From Euryarchaeota archaeon UBA605 (GTDB taxonomy: Archaea; Thermoplasmatota; Poseidoniia; Poseidoniales; Thalassarchaeaceae), in the NCBI GenBank assembly GCA_002504905.1, contig DATY01000013.1, forward strand, positions 76,688 through 140,687: DNA of 64,000 nt, written 5' to 3'. Position numbers and translations under genes: made by a program. This document shows positions 1,802-50,773 of this stretch, piece after piece (the first letter of the stretch is position 1; every line of letters starts with the position of its first letter). Below the pieces are notes generated by a model. That model had not been told where the DNA came from. It ran no database searches and saw only the letters and a list, made by a program, of their open reading frames with translations.

Positions 1802-2725
1802 GTGGTTTTATTGAATGAAATTGTATCTGAATTCAGAGATTCTATTGATGAAGAATTGGTAAGGAGAAAGTTTTCTTCATTAAATGATGATGAAATTCCT
1901 GTTTGGATGGGTTCACCGACAGTCCTCTCATACTCTCCAAGGTATCTTCTTGCAGTAATTATTTTCTCTGTACATTTCATATTCTATCGAGTAGCAGTTA
2001 CTATTTTTGCAGAAGGAAAGGAAGGATTTTTTTACACATTTCTACGAATTATAGATCAGCTATTTGATTTAATTGACGTTTTCGCATTCATTATTGTAAT
2101 GCTATTTATTGCGAGGATTAATCATTTTCTTAATATCTCAACATCAAGTTTGAGGACAACTTTTTTCTTGATAATTGTCGGTTTAATTCCATCTGTTTGG
2201 TATATTGTGAATATAATTGACTGGATTTTAGTGCTAATAGGCAGAGAAGGGATAAACATCCCAGAATGGTTTGATACTTGGTTTCTAACTCTGGGAATAA
2301 TAACTTCCATGATTTTCTTGATTTATAATATCATTTCGCAATTTTCTTATTCATACCTAATTACTGATAAGAATATTTACATAAGGAGGAAAATTTTGCT
2401 ATTTTATAATTCAATCACAGTATTTAGGCTGGATGAATTAGTTAATCTCAAAACTCAGATGTCATTTTTTGGAAAAATAATAGGATATGGTAATATTTTA
2501 CCGATCACAGAAGAAAGTATAGAAATACAATCTAAAATCAAAGTTGAGAAATCTGGATTTCAAAAGATAATTCATTTTATCAGGTTGTTTATCTCTTATC
2601 AGAGGCCAAAAAAGGAGTTACCAATTAATCCTTCTGAGTGTATTTTTGGAGTTAGAAAGCCAATGATTGTATATGAATTAGTAAACGAATTAATAGATGA
2701 AAATAATATTGAAATAGAAATTTAG
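1802..2725 (+). CDS. Membrane protein with C-terminal bacterial PH (bPH_2-like) domain
   Basis: GTG start, several TM helices, then YSYLITDKNIYIRR...FFGKIIGYGNI matching the bPH_2 pattern. Confidence 0.65.
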   Translation: MVLLNEIVSEFRDSIDEELVRRKFSSLNDDEIPVWMGSPTVLSYSPRYLLAVIIFSVHFIFYRVAVTIFAEGKEGFFYTFLRIIDQLFDLIDVFAFIIVMLFIARINHFLNISTSSLRTTFFLIIVGLIPSVWYIVNIIDWILVLIGREGINIPEWFDTWFLTLGIITSMIFLIYNIISQFSYSYLITDKNIYIRRKILLFYNSITVFRLDELVNLKTQMSFFGKIIGYGNILPITEESIEIQSKIKVEKSGFQKIIHFIRLFISYQRPKKELPINPSECIFGVRKPMIVYELVNELIDENNIEIEI

Positions 2726-2779
2726 GTTTCCGCATTGTTATTAATGAAAAGGTATCGAGAGTACATTAGAGGGATTCAC

Positions 2780-3325
2780 ATGTCCGAAGAAGATATCATT
2801 ACAATTGCAGCACAACACATTACCAAAGGAGATTTCATGGGAGCCATGGAAATATTTGAGAATCATGTTAATGAAAATCCTAAAGATCCTGCTGGATATC
2901 ATGGTTGGGCTGAAGCAGCAATGTTTGAAATTCAAGAAAATGGTAATTTTGATGAAAAAGGAAATGATAGAATTAATGAGGGTAAAGTGCAGTCCTATCT
3001 TAGAAAAGCAGCAGGTTTAGAGCCAGATAACGCTGAATATCAGGCAGCATTTGCAAATGCCCTGATAGAGTTTGATCGTGTCCCTATGGCTGTTCGAGAA
3101 TTCAAGAAGTTGATTGAGCTTGGCAAGAAGATAGAAGATGTTGATGTTTCTTTCCATCTCTATGAGGCTGCTAAACAATTGATAGATTCAATTGATGTTA
3201 AAGTTGGTTATGATCGCAGTGAGCAGTTTGCTAGACAATTTATTCCCATTGCAATTGAATTCGCAATTTTAGGATTAGGTTTCTCATCTGTAGAGGAAGC
3301 AATGGAATATCTGACTGAGGAATAA
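2780..3325 (+). CDS. TPR-repeat protein
   Basis: ATG 2780 (MSEEDII). Helical repeats with NPKDPAGYHGWAEA and EPDNAEYQAAFANAL TPR signatures. Confidence 0.7.
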   Translation: MSEEDIITIAAQHITKGDFMGAMEIFENHVNENPKDPAGYHGWAEAAMFEIQENGNFDEKGNDRINEGKVQSYLRKAAGLEPDNAEYQAAFANALIEFDRVPMAVREFKKLIELGKKIEDVDVSFHLYEAAKQLIDSIDVKVGYDRSEQFARQFIPIAIEFAILGLGFSSVEEAMEYLTEE

Positions 3326-3339
3326 GGGGGGAATTCCGA

Positions 3340-4221
3340 TTGACTAGCGGCCGTATTATGGTCGCATTTGGTTATCATGGAAGTCACTTTCATGGTTCTC
3401 AGATTCAACCAGATGTTCCTACAGTGCAAAAGGCTATTGAAAACGCGTTAAGGAAGGTTAGTTGGTGGACTGATGGATGTCTAGAAATGTCCAGCAGAAC
3501 TGATGCTGGTGTTAGTGTAAGAATGAATCTTGCTTGTATAGACATACCAATTACGGTTTGGAATGAAGTAGAGAAAAAAACAATCCTTAGAGTTCTCAAT
3601 AATCGATTCCCTGAAGGTTTGTGCGCATGGAACTTGGTCAAAGTTGAATCTGATATCAGAAGCAGAGCTGCCATTAATAGGACATATCTTTATCGAACTG
3701 AATTAATTGAAGAATGGTCAGCAGGAATAGATGAAAAATTATTCATTGACTCTTGCAAATATATTGTCGGCACTCATAATTTTACAAATTTTTGTAAATT
3801 AGAAGAAGATAAGAATCCAATTCGTACCATTGATTTCTGTGAACCTTGGTACTCTTCTGATGGTAGAATAATTGGTATTCATATTAGTTCCGAGGCATTT
3901 TTATGGAATCAAGTTAGAAGAATAGCAGCGGCAATTACGGGTGTTGCAACTCGAAGAATTGATTTCGATTTATTCAAATCAGCATTACAAAATCCTGAAA
4001 CATCCTTAGATTTAGGAAGAGCACCCTCTAATGGCCTGATTCTTTGGTCGATTGAACACCAATTTTCTGAAAGAATGGGTTTAGATTGTAAACCAGACAC
4101 AACAGGTTTCTCTATGCCACCAGAAAAAAAATATCGATTTAAGAGATGGTTATCCATGGCGAAGTTAGAGATGGGGATGTTAATTGAAAGAGATTGGGAA
4201 TCTTCTCTTAATTTAATTTGA
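3340..4221 (+). CDS. truA: tRNA pseudouridine(38-40) synthase TruA
   Basis: GYHGSHFHGSQIQ, catalytic SRTDAGV, GTHNFTNF, FLWNQVRRI and APSNGLIL motifs. TTG start preceded by a G-rich RBS. Confidence 0.92.
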   Translation: MTSGRIMVAFGYHGSHFHGSQIQPDVPTVQKAIENALRKVSWWTDGCLEMSSRTDAGVSVRMNLACIDIPITVWNEVEKKTILRVLNNRFPEGLCAWNLVKVESDIRSRAAINRTYLYRTELIEEWSAGIDEKLFIDSCKYIVGTHNFTNFCKLEEDKNPIRTIDFCEPWYSSDGRIIGIHISSEAFLWNQVRRIAAAITGVATRRIDFDLFKSALQNPETSLDLGRAPSNGLILWSIEHQFSERMGLDCKPDTTGFSMPPEKKYRFKRWLSMAKLEMGMLIERDWESSLNLI

Positions 4222-4642
4222 TTTCTAATTTATCCCCATCATTACATGGAAGAGATTCTCTTAGAAATGAACCCGAAATTACTTCTGCTGTTTCCGTATG
4301 TCTTGTTAGGTCTGGAATCAATATTGCACATTCTATCCAATTTTTTCCATCGGACGAAATTTTGGCAAGAAAAGCCGTTGCTCCTCCAAAAGATTTACCA
4401 TCTCTTTCAAAACCTTTAATCCTAAGCGGCTTAGTTTTTAGTTTGACTTCACCTTCCTCAAGCCCTGATAAAATTCTTAAATCTTGATAGTTTGACAAAC
4501 TTGATTTTTCCATATCGAGGTTTAAGGTTCCAGGCCATGCACTGACTTTGAGAACTTTCTTAAATTGTTCTTGGTAATGTGGTTGAGCCATGAATATATG
4601 CGCTCTTCCTAGTCCGCTGGACACTTTGCCATACAGGTGCAT
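4208..4642 (-). CDS. ribK: CTP-dependent riboflavin kinase (archaeal, no HTH domain)
   Basis: GKVSSGLG...WPGTLNL...FGG...IPDLTRH...E...LRESL pattern of DUF120/RibK. Confidence 0.88.
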   Translation of the reverse strand: MHLYGKVSSGLGRAHIFMAQPHYQEQFKKVLKVSAWPGTLNLDMEKSSLSNYQDLRILSGLEEGEVKLKTKPLRIKGFERDGKSFGGATAFLAKISSDGKNWIECAILIPDLTRHTETAEVISGSFLRESLPCNDGDKLEIKLN

Positions 4643-4689
4643 GATTAACCGCCTATTTCTTCATTCAAGAGGCTTACCGCTAGAATATC

Positions 4690-5577
4690 CTATAATGTTA
4701 GCACATTGCCCATTTCGGCGATTTTCCAGCCATTAAGTTCAACAATTTTTCTTTGTTTTGAATTGATATCATTCACTGGATTTGAGTGATTTAGATGTAA
4801 AAATGAGATTTCAGGATCATCTTCCATTTTCTTACCAAGGAGTTGCAGACTATCTTGTATTGTAGGGTGTGGTATTTCTGAAATATTTCTCCCAGGTAAT
4901 TCCTCCATACTCCAGAAAGTTCCATCAATTAGTGCTTCATCGATATCAAAAATTCTGAAAAAATCTCTAACATTATCTTTCGAATAATATTCCAGTGTTT
5001 TTTCCCATGAATCTTGATCTGGCATAAATAAGATATTTCTTTCCTTTCCATTTATAATTATTGCAGAAGTATCTCCTAATTCACTTCTATGAGGGATAGG
5101 AATAAACTGTAGTGAAAAACCACATCCTTCTTTTGGCTCAAATGGTTGATAAAATTCCTTTGCATGTGTTCTAATATTGTCATCTTCAATCATTAATCTA
5201 ATATCACTTCTATTATCGAAATTTTTCTTATTTTCTCTACTAAGGAAGATATCAATTTTTTTTAATCCCATTACAGGTTTCCCAAATTGTCCAATACCTT
5301 CTATATGCCCTAGATGTAAGTGACTAATTGACACAGTTTCAGGAATAAATATTTCTTTACCTATTGTTGTCCAAATCATTAATTGCTCAGATAGATTTTT
5401 TGTAATTTCAATAATGTGCTTGGACCCATCAGACCCAATAACTCCTAAACATACAGGATATTTTCTTAATTTGAAATCTTTGTGAGCTTCCATACAAGTT
5501 CTACATGAACAACCAGATTGTGGGATGCCACCATCTTGAGCAGTACCCAATATTGTTACGCTAACTCCTGATGTCAT
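4690..5577 (-). CDS. PqqB-like metallo-beta-lactamase-fold hydrolase
   Basis: GTAQDGGIPQSGCSCRTC, SHLHLGH, PIPHRSE, DGTFWS, IPHP and HLNHSNP motifs. Likely start MTSGV at 5577. Confidence 0.8.
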   Translation of the reverse strand: MTSGVSVTILGTAQDGGIPQSGCSCRTCMEAHKDFKLRKYPVCLGVIGSDGSKHIIEITKNLSEQLMIWTTIGKEIFIPETVSISHLHLGHIEGIGQFGKPVMGLKKIDIFLSRENKKNFDNRSDIRLMIEDDNIRTHAKEFYQPFEPKEGCGFSLQFIPIPHRSELGDTSAIIINGKERNILFMPDQDSWEKTLEYYSKDNVRDFFRIFDIDEALIDGTFWSMEELPGRNISEIPHPTIQDSLQLLGKKMEDDPEISFLHLNHSNPVNDINSKQRKIVELNGWKIAEMGNVLTL

Positions 5578-6865: not shown

Positions 6866-7291
6866 ATGGTCCAAACCTCATCCTTAGATAAAAATACGAT
6901 TAATTCAATGTTGGAAAGAATAAATTCTGTTCCAATTACTGAAACCCTGAATATGAAAATATTGAGGCTCGATAAAGGTGAATGTGAGGCCTTTATTCCT
7001 AGAGATACCATGTGGGATGGAATTTTTGAAACATTCCATGGAGGAATTCTTGCTACAATCGCAGATAGCATTACTTGTTGGTCTATTTTAACAAAAATAG
7101 GTTCTGATCGAAAAGTTGCAACTACAGATTTTAATATTAGATTTTTACGACCTTGTAAGACTGATGTCAGATGTGTAGCTAAAGTGATCAAGGCAGGGCG
7201 AACATTGAGTCTGGCAGAAGCAGAGATTTTCGATATGGAAGGTAAAATAGTTGCAATTTCACAAGTAAATTATATTTCACTTGATTCATGA
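6866..7291 (+). CDS. PaaI-family hotdog-fold thioesterase
   Basis: FHGGILATIADS and TTDFNIRFLRP motifs; 141 aa. Confidence 0.88.
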   Translation: MVQTSSLDKNTINSMLERINSVPITETLNMKILRLDKGECEAFIPRDTMWDGIFETFHGGILATIADSITCWSILTKIGSDRKVATTDFNIRFLRPCKTDVRCVAKVIKAGRTLSLAEAEIFDMEGKIVAISQVNYISLDS

Positions 7292-7909
7292 ATCTAATTC
7301 TTCTATAGCATTCTCTAATTCGTTGAAATTTTGTTCACTTAACTCAGGATTTTCTTTTTCTAAATATATTGTCTTCTTCATACCCTCAAATGGATTTAAG
7401 TCTCTATCTATTCTTTCAATCATTCTCCACCTTGGGGCATAAGATATTTGGATATATATTGGCCCTGGAGAGATCAAAATGAAATATCCTAGTATTTGTA
7501 ATTCTTCAGGGGTAGAGAAAATTATCGTTATTGTAGTGATAAAGAATCCAACGAATGGCAATGGGTAGAGATATCTTCTCCTTCTTTCTAGCCTTACTGG
7601 CGGTATTTTTATCAAAGAAGAAATAACAGTTGAAATAGCACCCAATGAAGCACATAAAAGGATTATTATTAAGCTTTGAAAACCCCATTTCTCTAGTATA
7701 TCTATACTACTTTCAGAATTAGAGTTCCCATCATAAAACATTGGTAATAAAAGTGTTAAGTTTATTATAATTGCATAAACAATACCTACAAAAACTGGAC
7801 TTGAGATTGACAGAGAGTAATTCAAGAATAGTTGACTAATCGAGCCTCCTTCAAGCATATGCCTATGCTCATCATCGTATTCTTCGAGGCGTTCGCGCCA
7901 ATTAGGCAT
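7286..7909 (-). CDS. Hypothetical membrane protein
   Basis: 207-aa ORF with about 4 hydrophobic segments; fills the gap between genes. Confidence 0.6.
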   Translation of the reverse strand: MPNWRERLEEYDDEHRHMLEGGSISQLFLNYSLSISSPVFVGIVYAIIINLTLLLPMFYDGNSNSESSIDILEKWGFQSLIIILLCASLGAISTVISSLIKIPPVRLERRRRYLYPLPFVGFFITTITIIFSTPEELQILGYFILISPGPIYIQISYAPRWRMIERIDRDLNPFEGMKKTIYLEKENPELSEQNFNELENAIEELDS

Positions 7910-8061
7910 AATTTATTCCCTCAATACATTATCTTTCATCATTACGGGTAATTTAATTAAAAAATATTGATTTTTACCCGAATAGAATGATGCGATATTC
8001 TAAACTTAATATCGGAGATATTATGACTTAACTATATTGGGAGAGTATTTTGTGGTACTAG

Positions 8062-9231
8062 ATGAATGATGAAGATGTATTGTTTTCGATTACTGATAAG
8101 AATTTAGATTCTGGACTGAGGGGAGTACCAGTTGGAACTTGTCAAACTTCTTTTGTTGACCCTTATGAAGGGGTTCACTATGTCGGTTATCCTGTTGAAG
8201 ACTTGGTAAATATGGAAGAGGAAGATGTAATATTTTTACTGTTCTATAAGCGTCTACCAACTGAAGAAGAATCACAAGAGTTTCGTGCTGAATTAACACA
8301 GAGAGGGAAAAATATCCCTACAGGAGCACTAAGAGTTCTGGAATCCCTAACTCCCGGTAGCGGTCATCCTATGGAATGGCTTTCAATTGGAATTATGGCT
8401 TTAGGAACTGCGGAAAAAACCGGTGATACCAGGGCTGATGCGATGAATCTTATAGCTAGAATGCCCGAACTTATGGCTAGAATCTTCCGTTTAAGAGGAG
8501 GTGAGAAAGAGAAATTGAAGCCACGAAAACCCGGCCTAGGTTTAGTAGAAAATTTCGTACATATGATGGGTTTTGAAGGTAGTCAAGCGCGTGATATTGA
8601 GAGAGTTCTCAGATTCTTTTTCATTCTCCATATGGATCATGGCGGAGGAAATCTTTCAACATTCTCTGGTAAAGCAGTAGCTTCTGGATGGGCGTCAATT
8701 TACTCTTCTATTTCTAGTGCTATGAACGCTCTTTCAGGGCCTCTTCATGGTCAAGCCAATCAGGCATGTCTTGAGTTCGTCAAAAGAATTGGAACATCTG
8801 ACCATCAGGAAATTGAAGACTTTGTACGTACAGAATTAGCCAATCGTAGGAAAATTTATGGTTTTGGACATGGTGTTTTGAGAGCGGAAGACCCAAGAGC
8901 TCGCTTATTGTTTGAATTAGGTGATGAAATTTGCCCTGAACATGAATATTTCAAAATTGCTAGGGCATTGAGAGAAGTAATTCCTCCTATTCTAAGTGAA
9001 ATCCCAAAGATAAGTAATCCCTATCCAAATGTAGATATTGCTAGTGGAAGTTTACTACACTCAGTTGGTTTCAGGATGCCTGAATATTATACAACATTTT
9101 TTGGCTGGGCAAGAGTTGCAGGAATCAGTGCCCAAATACTTGATGAGAGAAATGCTAGAGATGGACGAGGTACTCCTATTTACAGGCCGAAATATATCCC
9201 TAAGAATCAACCATTAAGAAGAATTGAATAA
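8062..9231 (+). CDS. gltA: Citrate synthase
   Basis: GLRGV, HMDHGGGNLS, GPLHGQAN, YGFGHGVLR..DPR and PNVD motifs. Confidence 0.93.
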   Translation: MNDEDVLFSITDKNLDSGLRGVPVGTCQTSFVDPYEGVHYVGYPVEDLVNMEEEDVIFLLFYKRLPTEEESQEFRAELTQRGKNIPTGALRVLESLTPGSGHPMEWLSIGIMALGTAEKTGDTRADAMNLIARMPELMARIFRLRGGEKEKLKPRKPGLGLVENFVHMMGFEGSQARDIERVLRFFFILHMDHGGGNLSTFSGKAVASGWASIYSSISSAMNALSGPLHGQANQACLEFVKRIGTSDHQEIEDFVRTELANRRKIYGFGHGVLRAEDPRARLLFELGDEICPEHEYFKIARALREVIPPILSEIPKISNPYPNVDIASGSLLHSVGFRMPEYYTTFFGWARVAGISAQILDERNARDGRGTPIYRPKYIPKNQPLRRIE

Positions 9232-44273: not shown

Positions 44274-45884
44274 ATGTACAATGGACAACAACCAATTTTT
44301 ATCCTAAAAGAAGGCACTGAAAGAACTAGTGGACGTTCTGCTCAGAGTAATAATATTGCAGCAGCTAAGGCAGTAGCAGATTCTGTCCGTTCTACTTTAG
44401 GTCCTAAAGGAATGGATAAAATGTTAGTTGACGGAATGGGAGATGTAGTAATAACAAATGATGGAGCTACAATATTAAAGCAAATGGATATAACCAATCC
44501 TGCTGCAAAGATGATAATTGAGGTTGCTAAAACACAAGAACAGCATTGTTTTGACGGTACTACAAGTGCTGTTGTAATCGCAGGAGAATTATTGAAAAGA
44601 AGTGAAGATTTAATAGATCAGAATGTACATCCTACAGTAATTTGTGAGGGTTTCCGTTTAGCCGCAGAAAAGGCTGCTGAGTTAATTGAAAGTCATTCAC
44701 TTGAGACAAACGAACAAATGTTATCAGAAGTTGCAAAAACTGCATTAACTGGTAAGAGTGCTGGAGCAGTGAAGGAATTTTTAGCGGATATCTGTGTTAA
44801 AGCAGTTCTATCTGTAGCACAGGAAGTAGATAATGAAACTATTGTAGATCTTGACGACGTTAAAGTTGAGAAGAAGCAAGGAGGCTCTATAGGTAGTAGT
44901 ACATTGGTTGATGGAATTATTCTCGATAAAGAGAGAGTCCACTCAGGTATGCCAAAAGTAGTTAATGATGCTAAAATAGCGTTAATAAATTCCGCTATAG
45001 AAGTCAAGAAAACAGAGGTAGATGCTAAAATCCAAATTACAGACCCAAATATGTTATCTCAATTTTTGGATGAAGAAGAATCATATCTTAAATCTTTAGT
45101 TGAAACCATTCAATCTTCTGGAGCTACTGTAGTAATTTGTCAAAAGGGAATTGATGACCTAGCTCAGCATTATATGTCAAAATCAGGTTTGATGGCTATT
45201 AGAAGGGCCAAGAAAAGTGATATGGAGGCACTTTCTAAAGCAACTGGTGGGAAGATAATTACCAATATTGATGATTTATCATCTGATGATTTAGGGTATG
45301 CATCTAAAGTCGATGAGCGCAAAATTGGTGAATCAGATATGATATTTATTACAGGATGTAAAGATGCAAAGAGTGTTTCAGTACTTCTAAGAGGCGGTAC
45401 TGAGCATGTCATTGATGAGATTAATCGTGCATTTGATGATGCCATTGGTGTCGTGGCTGTAGCCTATGAAGATGGTGCAGTATTAACAGGTGGAGGTTCC
45501 GTCTTAGCAGCAATTAGTAGATCATTAAGGTCATATGCAGAAGGAATTGGCGGTAGAGAGCAGATGGCCATAGAGGCTTTTTCAGGTGCTCTAGAAGTTA
45601 TTCCAAGGACATTGGCAGAAAATGCTGGTCTAGATCCTGTAAACACTATAATTGATCTTAGAAAAGCACATTCTGAAGGTAAATCTGAGTTTGGAGTTAA
45701 TGTTTACCAAGGTGGAGTAGCTAATATGGCTAAAAGTAAGGTATTCGAACCTAGCAGAGTAGTCGACCAGGCAATACAATCTGCTACTGAGACCGCAGTA
45801 ATGATTCTCAGAATTGACGACGTAATTTCCAGTAAAGCATCAGGCGCAATGGAAGGCGGAGATTTTGACGGTATGGGGATGTAA
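44274..45884 (+). CDS. thsA: Thermosome (group II chaperonin) subunit
   Basis: [35 protein letters not shown] and ILRIDDVI motifs. Confidence 0.96.
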
Positions 45885-45982: not shown

Positions 45983-48160
45983 ATGTCGGCCGTCCGTTCT
46001 CTCTTAGTGCTGTTTGGTTCTCAATCTGGTAATGCAGAAGATCTTGCATCTAAAATTGGAAAACTGGCTCCAAAATATGGTCTTGAAGCGACAGTAAAAG
46101 GGATGGATGAAATTCAGATTAGTGATATGGCGGAGCAAAAAAGAATAATGATTTGCTGTAGTACTTGGGGTGAAGGAGAGCAGCCTGATAATGCTGAGGA
46201 CTTGTGGATTTCTGCAAACGCTGATGACTCTCCTTCAATGAATGGTGTAAATTTTTCAGTACTAGCACTTGGAGATACCTCGTATGAGTTATTTTGTGAA
46301 TCCGGTAAAGAATGGGACTCTTGGTTAGAGTCTAAGGGCGGTTTCAGAATAAGTCAACGTGTCGATTGTGACGTTGATTATGAGGCCCCTGCTAAATTAT
46401 GGATAGATGAGACTTTAGCAAGAATGGGCGCAGTGGATGACTCCGGTATTTTCCAAGAAAGTTTAGTTGAAGACGTTAAGAGTAATGCTTCTGGTAATAT
46501 TTCGAATAAAATAGAACCAGAGTCGAAAGTTTCAGAATCATCAATTGAGATTTCAACAGATGGTGACCGTTCAATGACTATTCTCTTTGGTTCTCAATCT
46601 GGAAACGCGGAAGGTCTAGCTGCAAAATTTGCAAAGCAAGCTGCTAATTATGGTTTAGATGCTGAAGTTGCTGATATGGATGGCTTCGATTTATCATCAT
46701 TATCATCGAAAAAGAGAGTACTGATAATCTGCTCTACATGGGGTGAAGGAGAGCAACCTGATAATGCTGAGGAATTATGGCAGAAAGCAGTTTCAGCATC
46801 TCCAGGCTTACTTAATGGAGTTCATTATTCAGTTCTAGCACTTGGAGATACCTCGTATGATTTATTTTGTGAATCAGGTAAGGAGTGGGATAAAAGATTC
46901 GAAGAGTTAGGAGCCACAAGACTGGTTGACCGAGTAGATTGTGATGTAGATTTTGATAAAATTTCACAAGCTTGGGCCGAAGAAGCACTTGCTTCAATGG
47001 CGGCAGTTGATGGAGAAGGTATCTTCCATGAAGAAATGGTTCAGGCAATTAAAGACTCAATTACATCTGACTCTGTTGGAGCCTCTGGTGAAGATGGCTT
47101 TACGGTCCCAGATATCAAGTCAGAATCCATTCGTGCTGAAATTACTATTTTTAGATATGATCCTTCTTCCTCAACAACTGGGAAAGATACCTGGATTTGT
47201 GCATTACCCGGACATATGTCTATTCTAGATGTTCTCAGAACTCTGAAAAATACTCAGGATGGCTCACTAACATTCAGAGACGGTTCATTAGATGATCCAA
47301 CTACCGCGATTACAATTAATGGTAGGCATGTCCTACCTGGTAATCTCAGACTAGATCTGGCGGCCCCAATCCGTGACGGTGGTATCAGTATCAGAATAGA
47401 ACCGCTAAATGGTTTTGAAGTAATCCGAGATTTAGTAGTCGATCATTGGGCTCTTGAAACTAAGAGAGAGTCAAGTAAACCTTGGATGGTATCTGCAACT
47501 AGAAAGGGATTGAGTACTCCTCAAGGTGCAATTGGTTCTATGTCCCCTCTAGTAGCCTCAGAGCTTCATTCAATGACTGATATTCACAGTTATCCGATTC
47601 TTCATTCTTCTTCCGATGCAACTTCCCATTCTGAAGAATATCTCGGACCATCTATTATCTCTCATGCATGGGCGAGAAGAAATGATCCACGTATCTCTTC
47701 TAGTAAAAAGAAGGAAATTGAGAATCTCCTTGATTCTTCAAATGGAATTAAAGCAGAAACTGATTTATCCTCAATAAGAAGGCAAGGTAAAGGTACTGTA
47801 ATTCATGATGCGCTGTTAAACTGTAAAACTTCTACTTTGGCAAGAACAGGCTATAATGGAAGACATGGAAAGCATGTTTGGTGGTATGCTGTAACGGTCA
47901 AAAGTAGCGGTAAAGTGAATGATACGGTATTGTATAGGCAAGTTCTCGGTCCTGTAGGGTTGATAGGAAATCTTTTCTCTGGAGTCACTGCTAGAATGGT
48001 ACTTGGCTTCACTAGAAACGGAGGAAAAATGATCAATGATATTTTAGCTCTAATAGCTCCTCCAGCAGGGCTCGGTAAGATGCCTCGTCAGTTTAATTCT
48101 TCTGTGAAAAATCACCATGAAGTGGTAGCAATATTCAATGAGATGGATGGTCGTTTTTAA
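45983..48160 (+). CDS. Double flavodoxin fused to a degenerate (Cys-less) SdhB/FrdB-like domain
   Basis: Two GSQSGNAE / STWGEGEQPDNA / LGDTSY..FC FMN-binding domains, then IFRYDP...ILDVL...DGSLTFR...ING...IEPL.GFEVIRDLVVD matching SdhB but without Fe-S cysteines. Confidence 0.8.
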   Translation: MSAVRSLLVLFGSQSGNAEDLASKIGKLAPKYGLEATVKGMDEIQISDMAEQKRIMICCSTWGEGEQPDNAEDLWISANADDSPSMNGVNFSVLALGDTSYELFCESGKEWDSWLESKGGFRISQRVDCDVDYEAPAKLWIDETLARMGAVDDSGIFQESLVEDVKSNASGNISNKIEPESKVSESSIEISTDGDRSMTILFGSQSGNAEGLAAKFAKQAANYGLDAEVADMDGFDLSSLSSKKRVLIICSTWGEGEQPDNAEELWQKAVSASPGLLNGVHYSVLALGDTSYDLFCESGKEWDKRFEELGATRLVDRVDCDVDFDKISQAWAEEALASMAAVDGEGIFHEEMVQAIKDSITSDSVGASGEDGFTVPDIKSESIRAEITIFRYDPSSSTTGKDTWICALPGHMSILDVLRTLKNTQDGSLTFRDGSLDDPTTAITINGRHVLPGNLRLDLAAPIRDGGISIRIEPLNGFEVIRDLVVDHWALETKRESSKPWMVSATRKGLSTPQGAIGSMSPLVASELHSMTDIHSYPILHSSSDATSHSEEYLGPSIISHAWARRNDPRISSSKKKEIENLLDSSNGIKAETDLSSIRRQGKGTVIHDALLNCKTSTLARTGYNGRHGKHVWWYAVTVKSSGKVNDTVLYRQVLGPVGLIGNLFSGVTARMVLGFTRNGGKMINDILALIAPPAGLGKMPRQFNSSVKNHHEVVAIFNEMDGRF
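46166..46860 (+). repeat. Internal direct repeats between the two flavodoxin domains (573-nt period)
   Basis: 26-nt perfect repeat at 46262-46287 / 46835-46860 and a 35-nt repeat with 1 mismatch at 46166-46200 / 46739-46773. Confidence 0.9.
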
Positions 48161-49020
48161 TGGCTCTAAAATACGCATATCATCCTGGAAATGTCGCACA
48201 CTCAGGATCTCCAGAAGTCGCAGATTCTATGGTCCCTCTAGCTAAGTCATTGGGAATCAAACTCACATTTCTTGACGGTGCAACAAGTTGTGGTGCTGGA
48301 ATAATTAGGCAAGCTAACAAAAAGTTACAATTAGCCTTGAATGCAAGAATTTTTGCTCAGGCTGAATCGCTAGGACTGGAAATAATGACTCCCTGCGCTT
48401 CCACAGCGGGTAACCTTTCCGAAGATTTATTGCAATTGAAGTCGGATCCAATTTTACTAGCAGAGATTAACGAGATATTGGCAAAGACATGCGGAATGAA
48501 GTTCACGGGAGAAACTTCGGTGAATCATTTGTTGCATGTAATTGTAGATGAAATCGGAATTGATAAAGTCAAATCTATGGTAGTGAACCCTATTGATTTT
48601 AGAGTTGCTTCATATTATGGACCTAACATGCAACAAGATGGATTCTGTGGAGGAGATGACGTCTATGATCCAAATTATATGGAACAGTTGATGAGTGTTT
48701 TAGGAGGAGTACCAGTTGCATGGGACTCAAGAATGCAAAGTGTTGGTGCACCTAGTCTTCTATCTGAAGAACCAACAGTTCTAAGATTATCTGCCTCAGT
48801 ACTTAATGATGCTAAATCAGAAGGTGCTCAATTAATAGTTAGTGCCTGTAATTTATCCCATTCAGTAATGGATATATATCAAGGCAAAGCATCCCAAAGA
48901 ACTGGATTAAGGACAAATATTCCAGTTGTTCATCTTTGTGAAATCTTGACCTTTGCATTAGGGCATTATAATACTAGATTCGCCCAATTAAGGACAAGAG
49001 TAATGGTCATTGGAGATTAA
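48160..49020 (+). CDS. HdrB/SdhE-like two-CCG-domain protein with degenerate cysteine motifs
   Basis: YAYHPG, SCGAG, TPCAS, VASYYG, VSACNLSH and IPVVHLCEIL..ALG follow the HdrB layout. Start overlaps the upstream stop (TAATG). Confidence 0.8.
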   Translation: MALKYAYHPGNVAHSGSPEVADSMVPLAKSLGIKLTFLDGATSCGAGIIRQANKKLQLALNARIFAQAESLGLEIMTPCASTAGNLSEDLLQLKSDPILLAEINEILAKTCGMKFTGETSVNHLLHVIVDEIGIDKVKSMVVNPIDFRVASYYGPNMQQDGFCGGDDVYDPNYMEQLMSVLGGVPVAWDSRMQSVGAPSLLSEEPTVLRLSASVLNDAKSEGAQLIVSACNLSHSVMDIYQGKASQRTGLRTNIPVVHLCEILTFALGHYNTRFAQLRTRVMVIGD

Positions 49021-49021
49021 T

Positions 49022-50773
49022 TTATTCTTTTTCCCCATATTCTTCTAGTCCTCTCTGTCCAGTTGGCCTATACCTCTTTGCCTCAATTTCAATTGAGTTA
49101 TGTTTTTCTATATTTCCAACTTCATTCAAGTCAATTTGTTTCATTTTGGGGCGATAATTCTCTCTTTCTTCTTTAATAAATTTAGTCGCTGAGATCACTT
49201 CATTGTCCTGTATAATATCAAAATTCTGAATATTAGACAGGTCAATGTGATTTTTTCTTGGTAATTTTTTCCTAACTCTTTGAACTGATCTATACATATT
49301 TCGCTCCTTTTTTTGGGCTGCTAGTCTCATATTTTCATCACGGGTACCTTCTGCAATCAAGACCATAACTTCTCCTTCTCTATGTCTTCCTGTTCTCCCC
49401 CTTCTTTGTATTGTCCTAATCTCACTCCCCACTGGTTCGTAGAATATCACAAGATCAGCACTGGGGATGTCTAGTCCTTCTTCGGCAACAGAAGTCGCTA
49501 CCAAAACATTGTATTCTCCTTCTCTGAATTTATTCAAAACATCAATCTGCTCTCTTGGTTTGAGTCCTTTCTTCCCTGCTCTTTCGGACTGACCTATCAT
49601 TTGAATTGACTTCACTCCATTCAAGTCAATCAATGCTTTTTCTAAAGCCTCAACTGTATTCCTGAACGAAGCAAAAACAATAATCTTGCTATTAGGATCT
49701 CTTCTTAATCTATGTCTTACTAACCTTCTTACGGTTCCAACCTTATTATGAATTTCTTCCATATTCATTAATGATTTTCTCAATTCAATTATTCTCTTAT
49801 CCTTATGAAAGTTCTGAATAGATTTACTAGGGTTATTCCTCATTTCTGCAGATATATCTAAAAATTCTCTTGCAGCTGTTATTCCTTGAGTTAGAAGGTG
49901 ATTAATTAGATGATTTAAAGTCATAGCGGTTGCTATATTCGATACAGAGGAGTATCCCCTAACATCACCTAATTTAATCGAATGTTGTGCCCTACTCATG
50001 GCTTCTTTTAATCCTCCAAATGAGGGTGGTCCAGTCCTAATATACTTCCCGAGTCTTCTTTCTCTATCTACAATACCATTAATCCATAGTTCTAAAGGAT
50101 TAACCAATATTTGGATTTTTTCAGGAACATTAACTAGTATTTCCTCTATTTCTAAACCGGAAAGATAATTTTTCAACATTGGGTCATCCGACTTTCTGAT
50201 ATGGATCCTTTCAATTTCTAGTCTACTACAAATTTCATTGACCATCATTGCATTAGATCCAGGGCTAGCAGTGGCGCCGAAAATAATGCCATTTTTTGAG
50301 GAGGCATTGAACATCTCAGCTGATTGAACCATTGCATGTTTGCCAGTAGAATGATGTGCTTCATCTAAAATCAATAATGAACATTCTTCCAATGATAAGA
50401 TTCCATTTAACACATCATTACGTACAACCTGAGGAGTTGCCACTATTATCTTCGATTTTTTCCATAAACCCTCACGTTTCTTAGGGAGATTACCTCCTGT
50501 AATTGATACTGCCTCAACATTTTTGATAACTTTCTTCAAGTCTTTTAGATGTTGATCTACTAATGCACTGGTCGGCGCAATAAATAAGATCCATCCATTT
50601 CTTTCGCGTAATTTTTCAGCAATTAACATCCAAGAAACAGCAGTTTTTCCTGCTGCTGTAGGTAGCACAAGTAACATTGATCCAGATAGTGCCTCATCTA
50701 CTGCCTCTAATTGATAAGCTCGGCCTTCAATTACGTCTTCAACTAACTCAGTATGTTGAACCACGTGCCTCAT
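49022..50773 (-). CDS. hef: Hef/FANCM-like SF2 helicase (no C-terminal ERCC4 nuclease domain)
   Basis: RAYQ, LPTAAGKT, LDEAHH, TASPG, ATSVAEEGLDIP and QRRGRTGR motifs. Confidence 0.88.
   Translation of the reverse strand: MRHVVQHTELVEDVIEGRAYQLEAVDEALSGSMLLVLPTAAGKTAVSWMLIAEKLRERNGWILFIAPTSALVDQHLKDLKKVIKNVEAVSITGGNLPKKREGLWKKSKIIVATPQVVRNDVLNGILSLEECSLLILDEAHHSTGKHAMVQSAEMFNASSKNGIIFGATASPGSNAMMVNEICSRLEIERIHIRKSDDPMLKNYLSGLEIEEILVNVPEKIQILVNPLELWINGIVDRERRLGKYIRTGPPSFGGLKEAMSRAQHSIKLGDVRGYSSVSNIATAMTLNHLINHLLTQGITAAREFLDISAEMRNNPSKSIQNFHKDKRIIELRKSLMNMEEIHNKVGTVRRLVRHRLRRDPNSKIIVFASFRNTVEALEKALIDLNGVKSIQMIGQSERAGKKGLKPREQIDVLNKFREGEYNVLVATSVAEEGLDIPSADLVIFYEPVGSEIRTIQRRGRTGRHREGEVMVLIAEGTRDENMRLAAQKKERNMYRSVQRVRKKLPRKNHIDLSNIQNFDIIQDNEVISATKFIKEERENYRPKMKQIDLNEVGNIEKHNSIEIEAKRYRPTGQRGLEEYGEKE

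Follow-up and report, generated by a model that had tools for sequence, protein, structure and literature searches.

The question raised by this locus is what a protein of the HdrB/SdhE type does once most of the cysteines that would hold its iron-sulfur (Fe-S) clusters have been lost. The gene concerned lies in a stretch of 64,000 nucleotides (the window) from Euryarchaeota archaeon UBA605, a Marine Group II archaeon of the family Thalassarchaeaceae in the order Poseidoniales (contig DATY01000013.1, positions 76,688 to 140,687, forward strand). It occupies positions 48160..49020 of the plus strand and encodes a Cys-poor protein of 286 amino acids (aa) with a double CCG fold like that of HdrB and SdhE, hereafter the CCG protein, as read from the list of open reading frames (ORFs), Pfam, NCBIfam, the PDB and AlphaFold2. 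Directly before it, at 45983..48160 on the same strand, lies the gene for a partner of 725 aa, which consists of two flavodoxin domains, a Cys-less SdhB-like domain of the long form (type-E-like) and a conserved C-terminal extension. The best explanation overall, which is given an even chance, is that the CCG protein is the small subunit of a Poseidoniales-specific module that derives from a type-E SdhB-SdhE pair and would contain a flavin-fed pocket. The descriptive account of this module is held with high confidence, and the specific thiol/flavin mechanism that is proposed further below is tentative.

The loss of ligands was established by a residue-by-residue alignment to HdrB (8rvv_B, E=3e-32), the best match among solved structures, in which three of the ten motif cysteines are kept, namely C44, C79 and C230. 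This bears out the original prediction, which had counted about three of ten from the same motif readings. Domain 1 (residues 1-140; 48160..48579, plus strand) and domain 2 (residues 141-286; 48580..49017, plus strand) were delimited by the HdrB and orthologue alignments. The motifs of domain 1 read YAYHPGN (residues 5-11, with Asn for the first Cys), ATSCGAG (41-47, with SC for CC) and TPCAST (77-82, with CxxT for CxxC), and the ligand positions are occupied by N11, S43, C44 (48289-48291), C79 (48394-48396) and T82. Those of domain 2 read SYYGPN (151-156, with Pro for the Cys), QSVGAP (193-198, with SV for CC) and SACNLS (228-233, with CxxS for CxxC), with P155, S194, V195, C230 (48847-48849) and S233 at the ligand positions. 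The ten-Cys motif, C-Xn-CCG-Xm-CXXC twice, is absent from the protein, with two of five cysteines present in domain 1 and one of five in domain 2. Also in domain 2, H234, D238, Y240 and Q241 are invariant across the orthologues.

Family profiles give a matching picture. The Pfam CCG family PF02754 is found at 36.2 bits (threshold 20.6) in one stretch only, residues 5-81, because domain 2 is too degenerate to be recognized. The NCBIfam HdrB model TIGR03288 matches from end to end at 126.6 bits, below its cut-off of 345.15, and a second HdrB model, NF041780, reaches 24.6 bits against a cut-off of 450. The NCBIfam model of the MFR anchor SdhE, NF042965, matches over 266 of 282 positions (E=2.5e-32) at 112.6 bits, with a cut-off of 500. 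Database labels for the orthologues are in conflict and none of them fits: heterodisulfide reductase B family, succinate dehydrogenase cytochrome b subunit, and hypothetical protein.

The Cys-poor state is a real peculiarity of the clade. Of 109 full-length representative relatives outside it, 97 have all ten cysteines, and after correction for an offset of the alignment at the second CC none has fewer than seven. Two other CCG proteins are encoded in the same genome (assembly of 1.44 Mb, 85% complete), at C16:57241-57867, a position some 19 kb upstream of the window, and at C17:8976-9542. One is an EtfD/HdrD-like open frame of 698 aa, which has hydrophobic helices at its N-terminus and contains two CCG domains and two CxxCxxCxxxCP motifs; CS takes the place of its first CC (GCSGD), which resembles the linear-[3Fe-4S] motif of mycobacterial EtfD. 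The other, of 929 aa, is a membrane protein in which two complete CCG domains are combined with two ferredoxin motifs. These proteins keep their motifs, indicating that the Cys loss is specific to the 286-aa protein and is not genome-wide.

Despite the missing ligands, the two-domain alpha/beta scaffold of HdrB is predicted to be intact. The AlphaFold2 model of the CCG protein, built with 23 orthologues, has a predicted local distance difference test score (pLDDT) of 89.4 and a predicted template-modelling score (pTM) of 0.88. When compared with the PDB using Foldseek, HdrB chains rank first, with template-modelling (TM) scores of 0.85-0.87 and a root-mean-square deviation (rmsd) of 2.4-3.1 A; the match to 8rvy_B has E=1.4e-19 and TM 0.86, and for 5odc_B and 8rvy_B the rmsd is 2.3-2.5 A over about 275 residues. 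After HdrB follow 3kwl from Helicobacter pylori, LutA and EtfD. The first fold class outside the CCG proteins is that of the Glu/Asp racemases, at E of about 1e-3 only, and a non-redox, two-thiol enzyme of the racemase or isomerase type has to be considered here. Such an enzyme would use one catalytic Cys in each of the two pseudo-symmetric alpha/beta domains, placed at a helix N-terminus (TPC79A and SAC230N), as in Asp/Glu racemases. There is a weak match to PF01177 (E=0.097, residues 212-274), a family that is also precomputed for two orthologues, and IVSACNLSH presumably resembles the ACNTA motif of racemases. However, the racemases superpose with TM of only 0.32-0.37 and an rmsd of about 10 A, and the PF01177 match reaches 12.9 bits against a cut-off of 31. 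The position of the cysteines at strand ends is simply inherited from the CxxC of HdrB, and the obligatory fusion partner has had its electron carriers swapped like for like. A racemase-like function is therefore considered improbable.

The gene could also be a strain-specific pseudogene or relic, as seven of the ten ligand cysteines are gone and Pfam misses domain 2. This has been refuted by its distribution and conservation. The CCG gene is single-copy with an intact frame in 151 of 151 Poseidoniales genomes, covering 22 genera and three families at 47-92% identity, and 560 relatives were confirmed when the GTDB species genomes were scanned with a sequence pattern. Pairwise ratios of non-synonymous to synonymous substitution rates (dN/dS; Nei-Gojobori method, NG86) within the genus are 0.02-0.06, and 43 to 45 alignment columns show no variation over the whole order. 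Together with the confident fold, this leaves decay with a negligible probability, and the CCG gene is a core gene under strong purifying selection.

The partner gene is kept together with the CCG gene throughout. Among loci in which the upstream flank is present, to which the counts of gene order apply, the partner lies directly upstream in 48 of 48 loci compared by BLAST, in 46 longer GTDB loci, and in three of three loci of one orthologue with 68% identity. The conserved order is thermosome, partner, CCG gene, a convergent helicase and the rpl3 operon. It had been stated at the outset that close relatives with full motifs, as a sign of strain-specific decay, or a lack of co-occurrence of the two genes elsewhere would refute coordinated evolution; neither was found in the order, and every locus with a flank has the pair. 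In UBA605, the genes are joined by TAATG (48158..48162, plus strand), in which the ATG of the CCG gene overlaps the TAA stop of the partner by one base (48160), consistent with translational coupling and with the start that had been read from the ORF list and the sequence. The same 1-nucleotide overlap of stop and start is present in 27 of 46 related loci, and the remainder have spacers of 5-21 nucleotides, often TGAGGAGAAnnATG. The full Poseidoniales gene pair is also found in PBAZ01000031.1, a contig labelled 'Chloroflexota bacterium SP4360', with 66% identity and a 721-aa partner upstream; this is most likely a mis-binned contig of Marine Group II (MGII).

The order in which the cysteines were lost can be followed across 113 distinct orthologues, with the domain-2 CC placed at positions 194/195. 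Three states of domain 1 are observed. In state A (17 sequences), all five cysteines are present and the motifs read PGC..SCCGAG..TPCAxCQGNM. In state B (79 sequences, the UBA605 genome included), the motifs are N, SC and CxxT, with two of five cysteines. In state C (17 sequences), they are N, (S/G)D and Cxx(A/S), with one of five cysteines and Asp in place of C44. Position 44 is either Cys or Asp in all orthologues, C230 is the sole motif Cys of domain 2 in every one of them, and only C79 and C230 are invariant among the motif cysteines, each being the first Cys of a former CxxC. The median dN/dS values in the three Cys states are 0.048, 0.044 and 0.035.

The thermosome tree tracks the three GTDB families, and state A is basal in each of them. 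State B, found in the clade of the UBA605 genome, is nested in Thalassarchaeaceae, and state C, found in most Poseidoniaceae, in that family. This placement indicates that the ancestor of the order had a complete domain-1 site and an already degenerate domain 2. The domain-1 cluster site was lost last, in the UBA605 clade and in most Poseidoniaceae. By the time of the common ancestor of the order, the partner had no clusters left and the CCG site of domain 2 had gone; the five-Cys site of domain 1, which would hold one cluster, went later. A parallel loss in both subunits, as originally suggested, is consequently seen in that both proteins have lost ligands throughout the lineage, but the losses were not simultaneous. 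The term 'metal-poor' refers here to the loss of ligands in the sequence; a small metal site could still be built from C44 (Asp elsewhere), C79, C230 and H234.

The partner provides the second part of the evidence. Pfam identifies Flavodoxin_1 twice and Fer2_3, the match to NCBIfam SdhB families has an E of about 1e-14, and the SdhB-like part has a profile match to SdhB chains at E=1e-14 and a fold match with TMt of about 0.77. In the read-through model described below, its core superposes on SdhB/FrdB chains with TMt of 0.72-0.78. In the orthologue alignment, the Fe-S ligand cysteines are absent from this SdhB-like part in all lineages, and the FMN-loop motifs of the flavodoxins (FMN, flavin mononucleotide) are intact. 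The usual architecture of the partner is an N-terminal CxxCxxC...CP ferredoxin followed by one flavodoxin. The ferredoxin is kept in all state-A partners examined and in all but one of state C. Its replacement by a second flavodoxin is limited to state B, in at least 16 loci including UBA605, and outright loss of the N-terminal domain is almost limited to this state as well. A fourth carrier architecture is seen in one basal genome (family f2), in which the partner at locus L054 (G001:C5, ORF 6867-8618, minus strand, 583 aa) has two CxxCxxC ferredoxin-type domains and no flavodoxin motif.

The exchange of ferredoxin for flavodoxin only in the Cys-poor Thalassarchaeaceae indicates that electron carriage is still selected. 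The UBA605 module has no recognizable Fe-S site and two predicted FMN sites. With the ferredoxin swapped for a second flavodoxin in the genus of UBA605 and the Fe-S ligands lost, the module should carry FMN as its sole redox cofactor. In the 301 Thermoplasmatota genomes searched, neither the module outside the order nor a fusion of a carrier with an SdhB that keeps its Fe-S cysteines was found; outside the order, only ordinary SdhB gave weak matches. Eight genomes of a sister family from the same class were searched for the SdhB-like part, and none had it. Among 86 matches in a collection of 5.8 billion proteins, there was likewise no Cys-bearing carrier-SdhB fusion and no module outside the order, and all were fusions of the Poseidoniales type.

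The likely ancestry can be seen from the nearest relatives. The next full-length relatives of the CCG protein among 1.84 billion representative proteins have 33-37% identity. Another Thermoplasmatota genome (locus L075) has an operon of SdhA (559 aa), a long SdhB (332 aa) and SdhE (296 aa). This SdhB is PRK12576/12577-like, has all Fe-S cysteines and carries a C-terminal extension that matches that of the UBA605 partner, and the SdhE, the nearest relative examined with all ten cysteines, has about 31% identity to the CCG protein. The module is thus best read as a derived SdhB-SdhE pair of type-E succinate:quinone oxidoreductase, with tethered carriers apparently standing in place of SdhA. There is no sdhA, hdrA or hdrC gene adjoining the CCG gene in its operon; that an sdhA or hdrA flavoprotein gene was not adjacent had been noted at the outset, and the neighbouring genes (thermosome, fusion, helicase and rpl3/rpl4) agree with this.

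The relationship to SdhE could also mean that the CCG protein serves as an SdhE-type anchor or quinone site of the canonical succinate dehydrogenase (SDH) of the genome. Some databases call the orthologues succinate dehydrogenase/fumarate reductase cytochrome b subunit, and the match to the MFR SdhE model points in the same direction, but its score is far under the cut-off. In addition, the canonical sdhA and sdhB are located on contig C20, beside a multi-pass hydrophobic protein of 290 aa of their own, and the canonical SdhB is of the short form (253 aa), without the extension of an SdhB that is partnered by SdhE. In all related loci examined, the CCG gene adjoins the fusion gene and never sdhA. 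This role for the CCG protein is accordingly rated as very unlikely. The 290-aa protein (C20:6493-7365, minus strand), directly upstream of sdhA-sdhB, has no Pfam match at E<=0.1 and is a candidate for an unrecognized SDH membrane subunit.

The association of the two proteins was modelled by using 23 loci in which both genes are in the same frame with a stop and three codons between them; the stop was read as Gly, which gave a paired alignment. The read-through model, consisting of the SdhB-like part and the CCG protein of locus L093, reached a best mean pLDDT of 75 and a pTM of 0.77. Foldseek superposes it on 3kwl (TMt 0.66) and on EtfD over both of its parts, and the match to 3kwl covers the helical SdhB-like part as well as the CCG part. 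An HdrC/HdrB-like association of the partner with the CCG protein has moderate support from these models. A natural fusion of the two genes in one metagenome-assembled genome (L081, G019:C27, ORF 2371-5334, 987 aa) was considered as evidence for a complex and rejected, as it arises from a frame-shifting deletion that takes about the last 27 codons of the partner. The near-identical sister single-cell genome (L113) has two normal genes, and the merged ORF probably reflects faulty assembly or a mutation confined to that one genome.

Phylogenetic analysis also links the two proteins. The tree of the CCG protein joins states B and C with a support of 99 in the SH-like approximate likelihood ratio test (SH-aLRT), and with 97 when each half of the protein is analysed separately. 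For the CCG protein, the approximately unbiased (AU) test rejects both Thalassarchaeaceae (p=0.0015) and Poseidoniaceae (p=0.006) as monophyletic groups. The last approximately 110 residues of the partner give the same grouping of B and C (SH-aLRT 88). The preceding approximately 250 aligned columns of the partner follow the families instead, and a B+C clade is rejected for them (p=7.7e-6 and p=0.0013). That the entire operon was transferred laterally was rejected as an explanation for the grouping of B and C, since the thermosome and these first approximately 250 SdhB-like columns follow the families. One possibility is that the domain-1 cluster was lost once and that a tract with the 3' end of the partner gene and the CCG gene was then replaced across families. 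An alternative possibility is that the cluster was lost twice independently and that the CCG protein and the partner segment in contact with it then converged. On both readings, the two proteins evolve in concert.

A mechanism can be proposed from what has been described for cluster-bearing relatives. In HdrB, the heterodisulfide is cleaved between two noncubane clusters, and each CxxC contributes its second Cys as the bridging one (PMC13083937). According to the same paper, about 8 A separate the clusters of both CCG domains, and a residue of one CCG motif can ligate the cluster of the other domain. In the Poseidoniales module, which has a TfrB-like arrangement, SdhA is absent, and a flexible linker joins one-electron carrier domains (ferredoxin and/or flavodoxin) to the SdhB-like protein. 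All SdhB cluster ligands and four of the five domain-2 CCG cysteines were lost before the order radiated. It is proposed that the CCG subunit would still supply the substrate pocket, between its two domains, and the tethered FMN domain would pass electrons to this inter-domain pocket. There, the conserved thiols C79 and C230, with or without C44/Asp44 and H234, may carry out a disulfide-type reduction, either alone or as a small metal site; quinone reduction would be less likely than this. The outcome would be an iron-free successor of the HdrB/SdhE-type site. The boldest form of this proposal is a previously unknown oxidoreductase, in which an Fe-S wire and a noncubane site were turned stepwise into an iron-free, flavin-only enzyme; its tethered flavodoxins would pass electrons directly to a two-thiol site formed by C79 and C230, with or without C44/Asp44 and H234, in the former heterodisulfide/quinone pocket. 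This is regarded as doubtful, slightly more so than the thiol/flavin mechanism itself.

Several observations weigh against this mechanism and the underlying complex. The FMN of a flavodoxin usually transfers single electrons, which does not fit easily with a direct two-electron reaction on a disulfide. Many invariant residues of the pocket are shared by the cluster-bearing relatives too and could be structural. The co-fold is moderate, the other four models having a pLDDT of 60-67, and the conserved C-terminal extension of the partner was modelled at pLDDT <50. Moreover, the bridging catalytic cysteines of HdrB (C81 and C234 in PMC13083937) are exactly those that have been lost, being replaced by T82 and S233.

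The main rival is a redox-inert scaffold or anchor, in which the SdhB-like core and the CCG protein would only dock the tethered flavodoxin or ferredoxin to a membrane or to another enzyme, and C79 and C230 would serve in packing or in a structural zinc site. Every known electron-relay cofactor of the core is gone, and SdhE itself has been described as a monotopic anchor with a zinc site of S3(O/N)1 coordination (PMC2754724). C44, C79 and C230 together with H234 would make exactly S3N, and the C-terminal extension of the fusion protein, which is modelled with low confidence, could be a point of contact with a membrane or another protein. On the other hand, a hydrophobic segment like a transmembrane or anchor helix was found in neither protein, the maximum 19-residue Kyte-Doolittle means being 1.4 for the partner and 1.2 for the CCG protein; a monotopic, amphipathic association with the membrane may still be present. 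The basal lineages keep the five-Cys cluster site, which indicates that the ancestor of the module was redox-active at the CCG subunit, and dN/dS in the Cys-poor states is as low as in the cluster-bearing state. An inert scaffold is thus a serious but minority option, and a redox-active module with a flavin-fed pocket is preferred, although the specific thiol/flavin mechanism is given about the same weight as the scaffold. The roles suggested at the outset, a membrane anchor, a quinone site or a thiol/disulfide partner, are all putative.

The surroundings of the pair are compact. The thermosome gene is located at 44274-45884, before the fusion gene, and the convergent gene for a Hef-like helicase at 49022-50773 is followed by the rpl3/rpl4 operon. 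The stop of the CCG gene (49018-49020) and that of the helicase gene, which ends at 49022, are separated by one base, leaving no room for separate terminators between them (window 49018-49024).

The archaea of Marine Group II are among the most abundant planktonic archaea and are uncultured, and the gene pair is universal and lineage-defining in this group. Within the order, one and the same enzyme can be followed in a natural series from a single Fe-S site to none in its catalytic-type subunit, and from ferredoxin to flavodoxin. If the module is active, a noncubane-cluster site would be replaceable by cofactor-light chemistry, a clear case of iron economy in enzyme architecture. If the flavin-only reading is true, the change from state A to states B and C and from ferredoxin to flavodoxin would record the iron-sparing remodelling of a catalytic Fe-S site in abundant ocean archaea. 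If the module is inert, it would be a well-defined pseudoenzyme scaffold for tethered electron carriers.

An account of the module was not found in the literature, and it can be placed by comparison with known systems. SdhE (formerly SdhC) of type-E succinate:quinone oxidoreductase (Sulfolobus/Acidianus SdhABEF) and MfrE of the Campylobacter 8-methylmenaquinol:fumarate reductase are alike in having about 285 aa with two CCG-type domains, encoded directly after a gene of the long-form SdhB type. The CCG protein differs from these in its three of ten cysteines, in the lack of an sdhA gene in the operon and in its Cys-less SdhB-like partner with flavodoxins. HdrB (5odc_B, 8rvy_B) shares the fold, 28-30% identity and the conserved NAR, H123, D238 and Q241. 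Both five-Cys ligand sets of the noncubane [4Fe-4S] clusters of HdrB are missing from the CCG protein, including the bridging catalytic cysteines (C81/C234 equivalents), there is no adjacent hdrA or hdrC, and the host here is an aerobic heterotroph and not a methanogen. TfrB, part of the thiol:fumarate reductase, has an SdhB-like part followed by two CCG domains in a single chain, which is the same order as in the module; within PRK06259 (488 positions), the partner matches 5-177 and the CCG protein 265-367. The UBA605 module differs from TfrB in having two genes, no TfrA gene, no Fe-S ligands and added flavodoxins.

EtfD of Mycobacterium smegmatis (9ojn) and HdrD-type proteins share the CCG double domain, with a Foldseek match. 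For the CCG domain of EtfD, direct feeding by a flavin has been proposed, from ETF to cluster D2, and a change of its motif from CC to CT gives a linear [3Fe-4S] cluster (PMC13083937), indicating that CCG sites tolerate the remodelling of their ligands. EtfD keeps its clusters, heme b and transmembrane helices, and the CCG protein has none of these. The best non-Hdr structural neighbour is 3kwl, a 514-aa protein of H. pylori that is described as uncharacterized (PMC3397514). It shows no detectable sequence similarity (E=1.9) and may represent a further relative of the HdrBC architecture that has no clusters. Among these systems, the protein of UBA605 is best classified with the CCG/HdrB/SdhE proteins, of which it represents a new, cluster-poor variant.

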